Positions 3,646 through 54,410 of a stretch of 64,000 nucleotides of DNA are shown one piece after another. The stretch is from Squalus acanthias. Taxonomy: Eukaryota. The DNA is taken from positions 36,458,001 through 36,522,000 of the forward strand of contig CM059432.1 in NCBI GenBank assembly GCA_030390025.1, written 5' to 3'. Both the position numbers and the translations under genes were made by a program. Numbering within the stretch: position 1 is the first letter of the stretch; each line of letters starts with the position of its first letter. The notes below the pieces were generated by a model. That model was not told the origin of the DNA, searched no databases, and was given only the letters and a program-made list of their open reading frames with translations.

Positions 3646-5107
3646 GTGGAGCGAGAAACAGAGTTAACGTTTCAGGTCGATGACCCTTCGCCAGAACTGG
3701 AAAAAGCTGGAGATGGAACAGGTTTTTAAGCAAGTGTAGGGACAGTGAAAGGGGGGAGGGGAGGAAAGAACAAAAGGGAAGGTCTGTGATAGGATGGAAA
3801 GCAGGATCGATGAAGAGACAAAAGGGATGATGGTGCAAGGCAAAAGGAGATGGTAATGGGACAAGTTAAGAAACAAAAGATGGCTCTATATGAAGTGTAA
3901 ATGGCGATAGCAGAATGAAAGACAGCTGTCATGTGAGAGAGGAGAAAAAAAATGGAGATAAAAAAGATAGGGGCAGAGGTTATGGTCTGAAATTGTCTGA
4001 CACGGCCCTTGACCGTGTCCGTTCTATTTCCCGCACTTCTGCTCTCACCCCTTCCCCTCCCTCCCGGAACCACGATAGGGTTCCCCTTGTCCTCACCTTT
4101 CACCCATCAGCCTCCACATTCAACGGATCATCCTCCACCATTTCTGCCACCTCCAGCGTGATCCCACCACCAAACACATCTTCCCCTCACCTCCCCTTTC
4201 AGCATTCTGAAGGGTCCGCTCCCTCCGCGACACCCTGGTCCACTCCTCTATCACCCCAACACCCCTTCCCCTTCGCCCGGCACCTTCCTGTGCAAGCACA
4301 GGAGATGTAACACATGCCCTTTTACCTCCTCCCTTCCCACTGTCCAGGGCCCCAAACACTCCTTCCAGGTGAAACAGCGATTTACTTGTTGTACTTGCAA
4401 TTTAGTATACTGTATTCACTGCTCACGAAGCAGTCTCCTCTACATTGGGGAGACCAAATGCAGATTGGGTGACCGCTTTGCGGAACACCTCCATTCAGTC
4501 CATAAGGGTGATCCCGAGCTTCCGGTCACCTGTCACTTTAATTCTCCGCTCCACTCCCACTCAGACCTCACCGTCCTCCGCCTGTTACGCTGTTCCAATG
4601 AAGCTCAAGGAACAGCACCTCATCTTTTGATTAGGCACTTTACAACCTTCTGGACTCAACATCGAGTTCAACAATTTCAGACCATAACCTCTGCCCCAAT
4701 CTTTTTTTTCCATTTTTTTTCCTCCTCTCTCACATGGCAGCTGTCTTTCATTCTGCCATCGCCATTTACACTTCATCTAGAGCCATCTTTTGTTTCTTAA
4801 CTTGTCCCATTACCATCTCCTTTTGTCTTGCACCATCATCCCTTTTGTCTCTTAATCTCTCCTGCCTTCCATCCTATCACAGACCTTCATTTTTGTTCTT
4901 TCCTCCCCTCCCCCCTTTCACTGCCCCTGCACTTGCTTAAAAACCTGTTCCATCTCCAGCTTTTTCCAGTTCTAACGAAGGGTCATCGACCTGAAACGTT
5001 AACTCTGTTTCTCTCTCCACAGATGCTGCCTGACCTGCTGAGTATTTCCAGCTTTTTCTGTTTTTATTTCAGATTTCCAGCATCAGCAGTATTTTGCTTT
5101 TGTATTA
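3646..5107 (+). mobile_element. Penelope-like element (Neptune-type), 5'-truncated, with inverted pLTR copy
   Basis: GIY-YIG endonuclease remnant NLVYCIHC..LLYIGETK.RLGDRFAEH (ORF 4369-4800), preceded by Cys-rich linker GTFLCKHRRCNTCP (~4280-4320). 3646-~3995 is the reverse complement of ~4670-5020. TSD ctccttaaaacct at 3633-3645 and 5108-5120. Confidence 0.88.
4968..5004 (+). ncRNA. Minimal type I hammerhead ribozyme, core mutated (CUAACGA)
   Basis: AGTT-CTAACGA-A-GGGTC-ATC-GACCT-GAAA-CGTT-AACT: stem I agtt/aact, stem II and palindromic stem III. A mirror copy on the minus strand at 3662-3698 has core CTGGCGA. Confidence 0.7.
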
Positions 5108-44300: not shown

Positions 44301-45605
44301 CACTCTTTGAGCCGTGCATTTAAACCTCCAATCTGTTTGTCTCTATGCCAAATTGCGCGTGGTTCAGGTAACAATCCAGAGATTATTACCTTTTGAGGTT
44401 CTGCTTTTTAATTTGGATCCTAGCTCCTCAAACTCCCTCAGCAGAACCTCATTCCTAGTTCTACCTATGTCGTTGGTTCCTACGTGGGCCACGACAACTG
44501 GATCCTCCCCCTCCCACTCCAAGTTCTTCTCCAGCTACGACGAGGTATCCTTAACCCTGGCATCAGGCAGGCAACACAACCTTCGGAACTCCCGGTCGCG
44601 GCTGCAGAGAACAGTATCTATTCCATTGACTATACTGTCCCCTACCACAACTACATTCCTTTTCCCTCCCCCCCACTTGAATGGTCAGTTTGCTCATCCA
44701 CCCTGCAGTCCTTGTTCTCATCCACGCAGGTAGCAAGTACCTCATACGTGTTGGTCAAAGACAAGGGCCGAGGCTCCTCCATCACTACATCCTGGGCCCC
44801 CATACCTTCCTGACTCGCAGTCACAACCTCCTGTCCCTGACCATTGACGAACTCTAACGTACTACTTAATCTAAGAGGTGTGACTGCCTCCTGGATCAAA
44901 GTGACCAGGTAACTCTCCCCCTCCCTGATGCCCCGCAATGTCTTCACCTCATACTCCAGCTCAACAACTCTGAGCCGAAGTTCCTCGAGCTGCAGACACT
45001 TACCGCCGATGTGGTTGCTCGGGAGCTCGCTGATCTCCACAAACTCCCACATGTTGCAGTTATGGCACACCACCTGCCCTGCCATGTCTATCTAATCTTC
45101 TTTATTTATTTGATTAGTTAATTAATGTTTTTCTCAATTTTAGTTTTATTACTCAAATGGTTTATCTAGTTTTAGTTACTAATTTAATAAAGTAAAGTTA
45201 TAGCAATTTAGTTTCTTAGCTAGCTTCGAGACTAAAAAAAACTGTAATACTCACCAACCAACCAATCATCTACCTGCTGCCCTGTGATGTCACTCCTTGA
45301 CTTTTCTGTTTGAAGGCTCTTTATAGCGCCACTGATCCCGCACACCTCACTGTTTAATTTTAATTAGTCAGTCGTTATTCAACGACTATTTATAGTTATA
45401 TTAATTAGTTTAACGAGTTAAGTTGTAAATTTAATAAAGTATGTTATAGTTTCCCGCTCCTAGTTTAAACCACTGTCCTAGGTTAGAGAGAAAATACGTT
45501 AGTACTCATGCACCAATCACCTACCTGCTGTCCTGTGACATCACTCCTTGGTTTTTGTTGTTGTTGAAATCGTCGGAGCTGCTGTCTCCTCCGATGTTGC
45601 TGCCG
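41385..45605 (-). mobile_element. Near full-length decayed CR1 LINE: 5' UTR, ORF1 (Cys motif, leucine zipper, SGNH esterase), ORF2 APE and RT, internal 3' deletion
   Basis: 44651-45085 C..C.MWE...KCLQLEELRLRVVELE. 44180-44374 LNARLKEWC...WDGLHLN (esterase). 43066-44021 APE (YLNAR, AITE.WL, YRPPN, MGDFN). 41527-42332 RT. Confidence 0.9.
42308..42671. mobile_element. pogo/Tigger-like MITE, second copy, inserted at TA inside CR1 ORF2
   Basis: TA|CAGGAAACTCTCTTTTAACCGGCACC...GGTGCCGGTTAATAAAGAGTTTCCTG|TA; reverse complement of 14750-15105. Confidence 0.92.
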
Positions 45606-47885: not shown

Positions 47886-49612
47886 TTGGGGTTAGGGTGG
47901 GAAAGTGGAGTTGAGGTAGAAGATCAGCCATGATCTTATTGAATGGCAGAGCAAGCTCAAAGGACCGAATGGTCTACTCCTGCTCCTATTTCTTATGTAA
48001 AATTTAAAGGACACCGGATAACGATCAGGAGTGGGAACTCTGGCCAACTTACATAAGAACATAAGAAGTAGGAGCAGGAGTAGGCCATACGACCCTTCGG
48101 GTCTGCTCCGCCATTCAATAGGATCATGGCTGATCCGAACCTAGACTCACGTCCACTTCCCTGCCCGCTCCCCATAACCCTTAATTCCCTTATCAGCTAG
48201 GAAACTGTCTATCTCCGTTTTAAATTTATTTAATGTCGCAGCTTCCACAGCTCTCTGAGGTAGCAAATTCCATAGATTTACTACCCTCTGAGTGAAGAAG
48301 TTTCTCCTCATCTCAGTTTTGAAACGGCAGCCCCTTATTATGCCCCCTAGTTCTAGTCTCACCCATCAGTGGAAACATCCTCCCCACATCTACCCGATCA
48401 AGCCCTCTCACAATCTTATATGTTTCAATAAGATCGCCTCTCATTCTTCTGTATTCCAATGAGTAGAGGCCCAACCTACTCAACCTTTCCTCATAAGTCA
48501 ACCCCCTCATCTCCGGAATCAACCGAGTGAACCTTCTCTGAACTGCCTCTAGAGCAAGTATATCTTTTCTTAAATATGGAAACCAAAACTGTACGCAGTA
48601 CTCCAGGTGTGGCCTCACCAGTACCCTGTATAGCTGAAGCAAGACTTCCCTGCTTTTATACTCCATCCCCTTGCAATAAAAGCCAAGATTCCATTGGCCT
48701 TCCTGATCACCTGCTGTACCTGCATACTAACCTTCTGTGTTTCATGCACCAGGACCCCCAGATCCCTTTGTACTGTAGCACTTTGCAGTTTCTTTCCATT
48801 TAGATAATAACTTGCTCTTTGATTTTTTCTGCCAAAGTGCATAACCTCACACTTTCCAACATTATATTCCATCTGCCAAATTTCCACCCACTCACTTAGC
48901 CTGTCTATGTCCTTTTGCAGGTTTTTTATGTCCTCCTCACTCACTGCTTTCCCTCCCATCTTTGTATCGTCTGCAAACTTGGATACGTTGCACTTGGTCC
49001 CCTCCTCCAAATCGTTGATATAGATTGTAAAGAGTTGGGGTCCCAGCACTGACCCCTGCAGAACACCACTAGTTACTGATTGCCAACCCGAGAATGAACC
49101 ATTTATCCCAACTCTGTTTTCTGTTAGATAGCCAATCTTCCACCCATGCCAGTATATTACCCCCAATCCCGTGATTTTTTATCTTGTGTAGTCATCTTTT
49201 GTGTGGTACCTTGTCAAATGCCTTTTGGAAGTCCAAATACACCACATCCACTGATTCCCCTTTATCCACCTTGTTTGTTACATCCTCAAAGAATTCGAGC
49301 AAATTTGTCAAGCATGATTTCCCCTTCATAAAACCATGCCGACTCTGTCCGATTAAGTTATGCTTATCCAAATGTCCTGTTACTGCTTCCTTAATAATGG
49401 ACTCCAACATTTTACCAACCACAGATGTTAGGCTAACTGGTCTATAGTTTCCAGCCTTTTGTCTACCTCCCTTTTTAAATAAGGGTGTTACATTAGCAGT
49501 TTTCCAATCTGCTGGGACCTTTCCTGAAGCGGAGATGCCGGTGTTGGACTGGGGTGGACAAAATTGAGAGGTCGCACAACACCAGGTTATAGTCCAACAG
49601 TTTTATTTGAAA

Positions 49613-49654
49613 TCACAAGCTTTCGGAGCTATCGATTGCTCCTTCCTCAGGTGA
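49613..49654 (-). ncRNA. Minimal type I hammerhead ribozyme (mirror copy)
   Basis: Exact reverse complement of 50293-50334. Confidence 0.8.
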
Positions 49655-50292
49655 AGTAAATTGGATACAGAATCGCCAGAGCATATATAGATGGAAAACA
49701 AAGCATGTGTACTTTACAATTGCAGACCAATAAATTAAATCATCCTGACTATCTGCCGAGGTGTGATAAAGTTAATTAAGTCAGCCAGGAAGGTACCACA
49801 TCAAAAGACATAGCAAGATACAACTGAGACAATGAGGTGTAGTCGCAGGGGTTCTAACGTGTCAAAAGCTGCCGTCTGTATGTAAAACGAAAAGCTTTAA
49901 AAAAAATTTACTTTTTTACTGGGAAAATTTTTACTTTTTTACTGGGAATCACATCTGTGAACAAGCTAACGTCGTCGTTAGCTTGTTCACAGATGTGATT
50001 CCCAGTAAAAAAGTAAAAATTTTCCCAGTAAAAAAGTAATTTTTTTTTAAAGCTTTTCGTTTTACATACAGACGGCAGCTTTTGACACGTTAGAACCCCT
50101 GCGACTACACCTCATTGTCTCAGTTGTATCTTGCTATGTCTTTTGATGTGGTACCTTCCTGGCTGACTTAATTAACTTTATCACACCTCGGCAGATAGTC
50201 AGGATGATTTAATTTATTGGTCTGCAATTGTAAAGTACACATGCTTTGTTTTCCATCTATATATGCTCTGGCGATTCTGTATCCAATTTACT

Positions 50293-50334
50293 TCACCTGA
50301 GGAAGGAGCAATCGATAGCTCCGAAAGCTTGTGA
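50293..50334 (+). ncRNA. Minimal type I hammerhead ribozyme
   Basis: TCAC-CTGAGGA-A-GGAGC-AATCGATA-GCTCC-GAAA-GCTT-GTGA: stem I tcac/gtga, CUGANGA and GAAA cores, stem II GGAGC/GCTCC, palindromic stem III AAGCTT, CUU cleavage triplet. AATAAA lies about 5 nt downstream. Confidence 0.8.
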
Positions 50335-52556
50335 TTTCAAATAAAACTGTTGGACTATAACCTGGTGTTGTGCGACCTCTCAACCTTTCCTGAATCCAGG
50401 GAGTTTTGGAAAATTACCACCAATGCATCCGCAATCCCTACCGCAACTTCTCTCAAGACCCTAGGATGTAAGCCATCAGGTCCAGGGGATTTATCCGCCT
50501 TAAGTCCCATTATCTTACCGAGTACCATCTCCTTAGTGATTTTAATCGTGTTTAGCTCCTCCCCCCCATAGCCCCTTGTTTGTCCAGTGTTGGGATATTT
50601 TTAGTGTCCTCTACTGTAAAGACTGATACAAAATATTTGTTCAGCGTATTTGCCATCTCCATGTTGCCCACTACTAATTTCCCGGTCTCGTCCTCTAAGG
50701 GACCAACATTCACTTTAGCCACCCTTTTTCTTTTTATATAACTGTTGAAACTCTTGCTATCTGGTTTTTATATTTTTTGCTAGTTTACTTTCATAATCTA
50801 TCTTCCCTTTCTTAATTAATCTTTTAGTTATTCTTTGCTGGTTTTTAAATGCTTCCTAATCTTCTATCCTCCCACTAGATTTGGCTACTTTATATGCCCT
50901 TGTTTTTAGTCGGATACTATCCTTTATTACTTAGCCACGGATGGCTGTCTTTTCTTTTACGCCCCTTTTTCCTCAGTGGAATATATTTTTCTTGAAAGTT
51001 GTGAAATACCTCCTTGAATGTACACCACTGCTCCTGTACCGTCTTACACCTTAATTTATTTTCCCAGTCCACTTTAGTCAACTCTGTTCTCATACCTTCA
51101 TAGTCTCCTTTATTTAGGCTTAGTACGCTGGTTTGAGATCCAACTCTCTCACTCTCCAACTGAATTTGGAATTCAACCATGTTATGGTCACTCATTCCAA
51201 GGGGATCCTTTACTAGGACATTTTTTATTAATCCTGTCTCATTACACAGGACCAGATCTAAGATTGCCTGCCCCCTGGTTGGTTCAGTAACATACTGCTC
51301 AAGGAACCCGTCCCTAATGCACTCTATGAACTCTTCCTCAAGGCTGCCCTGCCCAATTTGATTTGTCCAGTCAATATGAAAGTTAAAATCTCCATGATTA
51401 TAGCTGTTCCCTTATTACAAGCCCCAACTATTTCCTGATTAATACTCCGACCAATTGAGTTGCAACTGTTAGGAGGCCTATAGATTACGCCCACTAGTGA
51501 CTTTTTCCCCTTATTATTCCTTATCTCCACCCAAACTGTTTCACTATCCTGATCCTTTGACCCAATATCATTTCTCACTATTACAGTGATTCCATCCTTT
51601 ATTAACAAAGCCATCCCACCTCCCTTTCCTTCCTGTCTGTCCTTCCTAATAGTCAAATACCCCTGGATGTTTAGTTCCCAGTCATGGTCACCTTGCAGCC
51701 ATGTTTCTGTAATGGCCACCAGATCATACCCATGTGTAGTTATTTGTACCGTCAACTCGTCTATTTTGTTACGAATGCTGCGTGCATTCAGATAAAGAAC
51801 TTTTAAATATGTTTTGTGACAATTTATTCCTGCTTTTACCCCCTTTACTACTTTACCTTTATATATTCTGTCCCTTCCTGACACGCTCTGGTTTTTAATT
51901 ACCCCACTGCTACTTTGCTCTATTGCCTTCTCCGCTGACATTTTTATTTTTTGCTCTCTTGAAACCTCCCCCCCACTAATTAGTTTTCTTCTCCTCCTCT
52001 AGGCAGAGGTGCTGAAGCCAAGTGTAGTAGCTCCCTGTTGTCTGTGGAGGTGCATAGTGTGGTAACCGTTGAGGGAGGATTAGATAAATATTTGAGGGAG
52101 CAGCTGATTTCAGGGTAAAGTTTTTGGGCCTTTCTAGATGTCTAGAGTCTTTTCCAGTCCTCTACTTTTCCATGTTCTTCTGTTCCCAGCTGAGACCAGC
52201 AGAATGAGTGCAGATTGGGGGTTGAATTTTCTGATCTGTATCGCTCCGTACCACGTCATGCAGTAGATTTAACCTCTAAGAAGAAACAAATAACTTAGAT
52301 TTATGTAGCGCCTTCATGACCTCAGGACATCAAAATGCTGTGCAGCCAATGAAGTACTTTTGAACTGTAGTCACTGCTGTAATGTTAAAAAAAAACTAAG
52401 TCACTGGGGTGACCATTAAGAGAACATCTCTTATTCCAAGGTGAAGATCCACTGCACATTGATCTGCTGATATCTGTTGTATTGTTGTGTATGATAATCA
52501 TAATGAATCATCCATATTTTAATAAAAACAAAATTCCCCCCCTCGACAACCTGCAG

Positions 52557-53791: not shown

Positions 53792-54410
53792 GACCTGGAA
53801 ATTGCGGTCGGAGGCTTGCCACATACGCCACCGAACCGAAAGAAAACTACATATTTACCTTGTGTCTCCGGAGCTTCGGACTCTTGCGGTCCTGGGCCTA
53901 CAGACGTACACATGCGTAAAGGCCTACGGATCCCAGGGGCGCATGCGGTTCGCAAGCGTCCCTGGGATCACGTGGGCCAGGCCGATCAATGACTATGGGG
54001 GATTCCTATTATGCTTATGGGGATTCCATTTAGGTTTGATCTTTTGAAAAATAAATTTAAACATTTTTAAACGGGACAAAATTTACCTAAACTAATTTTA
54101 AATGTAAATGAATGTTTAAATCATTTTTTTAAATTTATTTTAACATTTATTTTAACCCTTACACTAGTAAAAGAAGGCCTTTCGACTGCTTTTACCAGGC
54201 CATAAGGGTTTTGTGGGTATTCGCTGGGCAGTAGTTGCGCCAGCAAAAGTGAATTTACAGCGGATGCGGTGGATCTGTCCAAGCAAAATTTGACATCGCA
54301 AGTTCTGGGTTTTCGCGCATGTGGAAACCCGGAACTTGCGGGGCCATTCACAGCACTTACGACGGCGTACGCACAGCATACGTTGTCATAGGCCCCATAA
54401 ATTCCGGGCC
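53792..54410. mobile_element. CpG-rich MITE with imperfect short TIRs (PIF/Harbinger-like)
   Basis: Left gacctggaaatt versus reverse complement of right end ggcccggaattt. GC/CpG-rich ends around an AT-rich core. Confidence 0.6.

Follow-up and report, generated by a model that had tools for sequence, protein, structure and literature searches.

Layout and parentage of the insertion

The window analyzed here is a stretch of 64,000 nucleotides (nt) from Squalus acanthias (GenBank assembly GCA_030390025.1, contig CM059432.1, positions 36,458,001 to 36,522,000 of the forward strand), and the feature examined in it is an 855-nt insertion that holds an 820-base inverted repeat. The two arms (window positions 49564-49971 and 49976-50383) are 408 nt each and pair without indels and with one mismatch around the centre TCGT; a further 35 nt (49529-49563) lie on the left side only. 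The insertion stands between 12-nt direct repeats, ACCTTTCCTGAA, which occur exactly twice in the 64-kb window (49517-49528 and 50383-50394) and form its target-site duplication (TSD); the first base of the right copy is also the last base of the adjoining arm. An earlier reading of the window from its letters (hereafter, the sequence-only reading) had described this geometry correctly, as it had the lack of an open reading frame (ORF), the longest stop-free stretch in the six frames being 67 amino acids (aa). Comparison with the rest of the genome identifies the inverted repeat, almost certainly, as two head-to-head, 5'-truncated 3' ends of an autonomous Penelope-like element (PLE) that arrived in one recent insertion.

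Positions in the element are counted from the end of its pseudo-long terminal repeat (pLTR), taken as 0, with the stop codon at -426 to -424. The 35 extra nt (minus strand) correspond to +1 to +35, a "tail" that lies between the pLTR end and the ATG at +39, and are identical to positions 3737-3771 of family locus L031. The tailed arm (49564-49971, minus strand) covers -407 to 0 of the 3' untranslated region (UTR) and pLTR. The untailed arm (49971-50383, plus strand) covers -412 to 0, so that the TCGT "loop" belongs to it as templated sense sequence; it begins 12 nt past the stop codon and overlaps the tailed arm by 1 nt (49971). Because neither arm reaches back to the stop codon, the insertion contains no ORF and is a dead stub. 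The sole mismatch pairs 49907 with 50040 (T at both, i.e., A versus T in element sense) and falls at element position -343, a family-wide A/T variant at an A/T run, for which 543 exact matches of the A form and 179 of the T form were counted.

A search of the same genome with one arm returned 985 candidates, of which 40 were scored; these gave 44 matches, 43 of them near full length and at approximately 100% identity. The arm matched both pLTRs of a full element at 99.8%; this element (L031) is organized as pLTR-ORF-pLTR with a period of ~3140 nt, and tandem or partial-tandem organization of the kind that forms pLTRs was likewise present in L131, L158/159, L161, and L162. The coding partner that the sequence-only reading had proposed to look for was found as five intact 892-aa ORFs (one each in L158, L161, and L162 and two in L159). 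Their reverse transcriptase (RT) domain was recognized above the cut-off (RVT_1, E = 1.4e-8). GIY-YIG was matched by the C-terminal part at E = 2e-4 and 22.0 bits, just under the cut-off of 22.6, and was not reported for the whole protein; the Atlas neighbours of the protein were RT/GIY-YIG proteins (0.98). Reading of the translation by eye located the DKG and CCHH motifs as defined in PMC8557442, and a C-x4-C-x2-C linker upstream of the GIY-YIG core. Judged by its translation, the parent is an endonuclease-bearing PLE with a single RT and C-terminal GIY-YIG ORF. Its linker conforms to the CX2-5CxxC definition of PMC8557442 and points to Neptune or Nematis rather than to Penelope or Poseidon. 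The microsatellite targeting of Neptune/Nematis-type PLEs was not seen here, the TSDs of the family being 69% A+T. The linker is common to both clades, and we assume Neptune from host range. The family is young, with intact ORFs and clean TSDs, and the suggestions of a Penelope link and of a very recent insertion were both borne out.

Two further family loci have unusual layouts. A giant inverted insertion (L158 6384-10000 and L159 1-6800; C1 ~223.718-223.729 Mb) carries three identical intact ORFs, with one full monomer plus 413 nt on its untailed side and two full monomers plus 371 nt on its tailed side; all five of its hammerheads share the same 4-nt loop deletion. This layout fits multi-round copying of one template, possibly circular. 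At L160 (424-7309), a tandem array with a period of 3204 nt repeats a 478-nt PLE stub (-433 to +45) together with ~2.7 kb of other sequence.

The insertion interrupts a decayed long interspersed nuclear element (LINE) ORF2 on the minus strand (48618-51998, outer limits approximate), with RT frames at 48618-49602 and endonuclease frames at 50920-51998, as recognized by the Pfam models RVT_1 and Exo_endo_phos and by translation across the site. This ORF already bore stops. The sequence-only reading was thus right about the LINE ORF2 target; the name CR1 that it gave to the host is kept here as an assumed label.

Inverted pairs across the family

The insertion was compared with other inverted copies of its family in a survey of 67 pairs, made up of 31 from a sample of C1, 17 from the best BLAST matches, and 19 from young copies. 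Left out were L054, whose ends could not be called, a second and older pair in L032, four loci that had lost more than 30 nt of an outer end to erosion (L098, L100, L151, and L152), and rearranged loci (L039, L058, L103, L127, L135, L157, L158/159, and L161). The first 100 hammerhead matches on C1 comprised 18 tail-out inverted pairs, 1 tail-in pair, and 62 single copies. Together these made up the 80 loci of the C1 sample, which included 31 simple inverted pairs (short second arms counted), of which 9 were near-perfect palindromes. Palindromic, single, and tandem loci, the classes that the sequence-only reading had wished to see counted, were all encountered, with counts that apply to these samples. 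Extrapolation from 9 of 80 C1 loci to the 3602 genomic copies of the hammerhead motif gives an estimated few hundred near-perfect palindromes of the family genome-wide. The insertion in the window is typical of its family and not extreme.

A one-sided tail is the rule. In 65 of the 67 pairs one arm ended at +29 to +53 and the other at or before +10, and no pair had two tails. TSDs were present in 64 of 67 pairs and measured 12-14 nt in 60, and the outer ends overlapped them by 2.1 and 1.8 nt on average, compared with ~0.4 nt by chance. Arm lengths varied continuously, from ~20 to 2900 nt, running into the ORF; the tailed arm was longer by more than 10 nt in 25 of 67 pairs; in another 22 the untailed arm was, its largest excess being 2.3 kb. 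In 20 of 67 pairs the inner ends lay within 10 nt of each other, giving near-perfect palindromes, whereas permutation gave 2.1 such pairs on average (p <= 1e-4 for every one of the three samples). Eleven of these had arms of at least 400 nt, the longest being 1650 nt. Inner junctions showed an overlap of at least 1 nt in 38 pairs, neither gap nor overlap in 5, and filler in 24. The two arms of a pair agreed in family haplotype at 468 of 472 diagnostic comparisons (59 pairs) and had 14 private changes in common; within the C1 sample, 0 of 132 comparisons were discordant, compared with 20% expected from a permutation control. By these sequence comparisons, the two arms of a pair derive from one source.

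Several further observations concern the ends. At L047, L149, L125, L150, and L103, the outer match of an arm stopped at -14 to -33 instead of 0 (at -21 for both arms of L047). Independent loci shared target sites, an example being one 12- to 14-nt LINE sequence that was used at L053, L056, L106, L147, L138, L080, L087, and L132, which suggests that some positions in host LINEs are favoured. At two junctions (L073 1593-1644 and L126 3617-3634), the filler was a copy of tail-region sequence, which suggests that the template jumped back to the start region.

The survey also bears on whether the palindrome is genuine. Near-perfect palindromes are a known type of assembly or library artefact, arising for instance from fold-back reads, and no read spanning the locus was found among four public runs, all of short contigs. 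However, an artefact would mirror the flank, whereas both flanks here continue the host LINE. The TSD, the tail, and the junction all conform to the pattern of the family, the 12-nt TSD and the one-sided tail matching 60 and 65 of the 67 pairs, respectively, and the base that distinguishes the two arms is a true variant of the family. A chimera is accordingly very improbable. The empty site is spanned, with 2 differences, by a 157-nt contig (X15, record 11) that comes from a different sample of this organism. As the host LINE is high-copy and the same join occurs in another organism, this contig is no evidence of polymorphism. The pLTR body was without cover in organism B (X6), which was not taken as absence.

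Origin of the inverted layout

The insertion was probably made by two target-primed cDNAs joined head to head (twin priming). In such a scheme, the GIY-YIG endonuclease would nick the two target strands 12-14 nt apart, and each target 3' end would prime a cDNA, the template being element RNA without a break at the hammerhead site. Synthesis of the tailed arm would begin ~35-45 nt past the pLTR end, and that of the untailed arm at the pLTR end itself. Both would stop early, often at nearly one point, as would be likely on one common RNA, and 1-4 nt of microhomology, or else a short filler, would link their 3' ends, with host repair filling in. Stops at -407 and -412 would then have produced the near-perfect palindrome in the window. 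The tail-out orientation and the 12- to 14-nt TSDs are the expected outcome of priming from both target 3' ends, and the stops coincide more often than expected, which suggests that both cDNAs were copied from a single RNA. All tailed arms cross the hammerhead site into the leader of the next monomer, so the template would have been uncut or re-ligated there.

Twin priming is familiar from LINE-1, in which both target ends prime and an inversion with junction microhomology and a TSD results. The two LINE-1 segments copy different parts of the RNA, whereas here both copy the same 3' end, and a palindrome is formed. The biochemistry of Poseidon PAc from the green anole (Frangieh et al. 2024, PMC11167929) offers a further parallel: the purified PLE protein, a predicted dimer, cuts and extends both target strands, two RT start sites bound the tail, and the template is uncut at the hammerhead, cleavage of which is not needed. 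The PAc tail and hammerhead lie inside the start of the ORF, whereas both lie upstream of the ATG in the present family, and the accessible text of PMC11167929 models no inverted insertions.

Inverted 5'-truncated copies with a 30- to 40-bp tail at one end, a TSD, and a junction palindrome have already been described for endonuclease-bearing PLEs, as inverted-pLTR units (Arkhipova et al. 2013, PMC3846280; Craig et al. 2021, PMC8557442). The window insertion differs from those units in that both arms are truncated within the 3' UTR and no ORF is left, and the TSDs of the present family are longer (12-14 nt versus 8-10 nt in the rotifer cases). Both papers favour self-priming or endonuclease resolution, whereas the counts reported here favour two primed cDNAs. 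The layout itself was already known; what the present analysis may add to it is a one-tail rule backed by counts and a model based on twin priming. A literature search found no twin-priming model of PLE inversions, many subscription papers and supplements lying outside its coverage.

Fold-back of a single self-copying cDNA, which the sequence-only reading had favoured, or self-priming on an antisense RNA (PMC3846280), with endonuclease trimming of one end then setting the tail, would account for the haplotypes and private changes common to both arms and for the near coincidence of junctions in 20 of 67 pairs. In 10 of these 20 palindromes, moreover, the inner ends lie no more than 1 nt apart, which fold-back predicts equally well, and several junctions centre on natural palindromes of the element (a 10-nt overlap in L038 and a 4-nt overlap in L149). 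However, fold-back would need the tailed strand to come first and to extend no less far upstream than its copy: a copy can neither extend further upstream than its template nor gain a tail that the template lacks, and the untailed arm is the longer one in 22 of 67 pairs. The centre of the window palindrome also belongs to the untailed arm, which TCGT on the plus strand prolongs in the sense direction; fold-back of the tailed strand would have left ACGA. Rescue of this explanation demands an extra step that strips the tail from the first strand. Arm lengths and centre sequence thus make fold-back an unlikely origin, at something like one chance in five.

Other observations weigh against twin priming, or limit how far the counts can carry it. 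The mechanism is deduced from end products alone, and the 67 pairs were chosen by exact patterns and top BLAST matches and are not a random sample. Private changes confined to one arm numbered 34. Among single-arm copies, 32 of 37 were untailed, and the approximately four independent ones with a weak 7- to 11-nt remnant of an inverted tail had matches within the control range. With PAc, start sites were not seen to differ between the strands, and no homology to the target was seen at the start (PMC11167929). Haplotype sharing is compatible with one RNA, with two RNAs that come from the same source locus, and with later conversion, and the overlaps at the ends could be obtained by end-joining alone. 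The -343 A/T variant, discordant in several pairs, may reflect two RNA templates; it also differs within the giant insertion with three identical full monomers, which speaks for repeated slippage at the A/T run, an explanation as likely as the first. As a two-template marker this site was tried and proved ambiguous.

A stricter form of the twin-priming model, which we put forward tentatively and consider somewhat less probable than its negation, is obligatory and asymmetric. A dimer would sit on one RNA, its subunits starting at the tail site and at the pLTR end, respectively, each on one target strand; they would copy the same stretch in tandem and stop together.

Hammerhead motifs, surroundings, and significance

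Both arms contain a hammerhead motif of the minimal type I class, at 50293-50334 on the plus strand (predicted cut after 50330) and in mirror image at 49613-49654 on the minus strand (predicted cut after 49617). The CUGAGGA...GAAA cores start at +50297 and -49650, and the remaining parts are stem I (UCAC/GUGA), stem II (GGAGC/GCUCC), helix III (AGCU), and the cleavage triplet CUU. An AATAAA, a candidate poly(A) signal, sits 6 nt past stem I (50340-50345 on the plus strand and 49602-49607 on the minus strand). The conserved core, stems I and II, and the two-pair helix III are those of the minimal type I class. The motif also shares with the examples in PMC4209133 the extra nucleotide between 9 and 10.1, the G10.1-C11.1 pair, the palindromic 15.2-16.2, and a copy number of thousands per genome; nothing essential differs, the motif having been read from sequence here. 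An Rfam scan matched no hammerhead model in 3001 nt at E <= 10, the only hits being hairpin-shaped chance matches below gathering scores, and the 61-nt hammerhead stretch folded no better than shuffled sequences (z = -1.6). The assignment, which the sequence-only reading had also made, therefore relies on the motif and the published features of minimal hammerheads. A 40-mer of the hammerhead had 3602 exact copies in the genome (control, 0), a lower bound, as loop variants exist.

Folded in silico, both strands of the insertion reached ~-760 kcal/mol with the hammerhead fully paired, in agreement with the suggestion that transcription through the locus in either direction would give the same ~400-bp hairpin. 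The sequence-only reading had proposed that such a hairpin might serve as a substrate of Dicer, ADAR, or MDA5, and had also seen in it a built-in ribozyme off-switch, a claim that found no support. Single minimal hammerhead motifs did not cleave in vitro (PMC4209133), the PAc motif required protein for cleavage (PMC11167929), and an inverted pair supplies only one sense motif per transcript; hence, there is little to switch off. The hammerheads are predicted to be idle passengers inherited with the pLTR, and their conservation follows from the youth of a copy that is 99.8% identical to active ones. In the C1 sample, 5' truncations clustered at the edge of hammerhead stem I, with 16 of 100 arms in a 9-nt bin (-89 to -97) and 5, 5, 4, and 4 arms in the next four, although this bin adjoins the selection limit, beyond which shorter arms were unseen.

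The off-switch can be seen as part of a broader reading, in which the palindrome would be a specialized non-autonomous element of the retrozyme kind, mobile as one unit and with a ribozyme silenced by the antisense arm. The lack of an ORF, the intact motif on both strands, and its masking in the full hairpin in silico agree with this idea, and non-LTR retrozymes (10.64898/2026.07.22.740005) are likewise noncoding, a few hundred nt long, and equipped with a PLE-derived type I hammerhead. Retrozymes, however, are defined by at least two tandem noncoding units with a hammerhead in each, whereas the window holds two inverted units, a one-off by-product, and the tandems seen in the family consist of full coding monomers. 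Nor does the palindrome move as a fixed unit of its own: its -407/-412 junction was unique, recurring in none of the other 66 pairs (the genome was searched for it non-exhaustively), and arm lengths and centres vary continuously. Together with the failure of single minimal hammerheads to cleave in vitro (PMC4209133), this makes a dedicated element highly implausible; the insertion is instead a 5'-truncated inverted product of an autonomous family.

Downstream of the window, exons encoding tubulin-binding repeats occur on the plus strand at a distance of 84-112 kb (four repeats in C8:36592536-36619955), and a 705-codon, repeat-rich open frame (L166 3191-5308, plus strand), which had no Pfam or Atlas match, lies 17 kb downstream. 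These are likely exons of a MAP4/tau-family gene, MAP4 being a presumed likeness, and an intronic position of the insertion is possible. No exon with an N-terminal motif of MAP4 was found in the window, within 10 kb on either side, or on C8. A weak WD40_alt match (44654-45091) was rejected as a repeat-borne false positive, the true gene being on C19. Elsewhere in the window, a GIY-YIG remnant (4162-4800, plus strand) of another, distant PLE family shares 36% identity over 97 aa with the family protein, and small inverted repeats were noted in unrelated repeats at 47922-48135 (77-nt arms, 86%) and 53929-53969 (19-nt arms, 89%).

The locus itself matters little, as the family has an estimated few hundred near-perfect palindromes like it. 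Of more weight is the family, which offers counts on the making of inverted pLTRs and one-sided tails, a step that PMC8557442 describes as still undefined. The one-tail rule, the balance in arm lengths, and the haplotypes common to both arms lead to a specific prediction for the in vitro PLE system that already exists. If obligatory twin priming is true, a single mechanism would account for three features that the field counts among the unexplained (the tail, the inverted pLTR, and the junction palindromes), and the family would keep supplying the host genome with long perfect hairpins, by the hundreds. Should any of them be intronic, such palindromes would be sources of double-stranded RNA akin to inverted Alu pairs.

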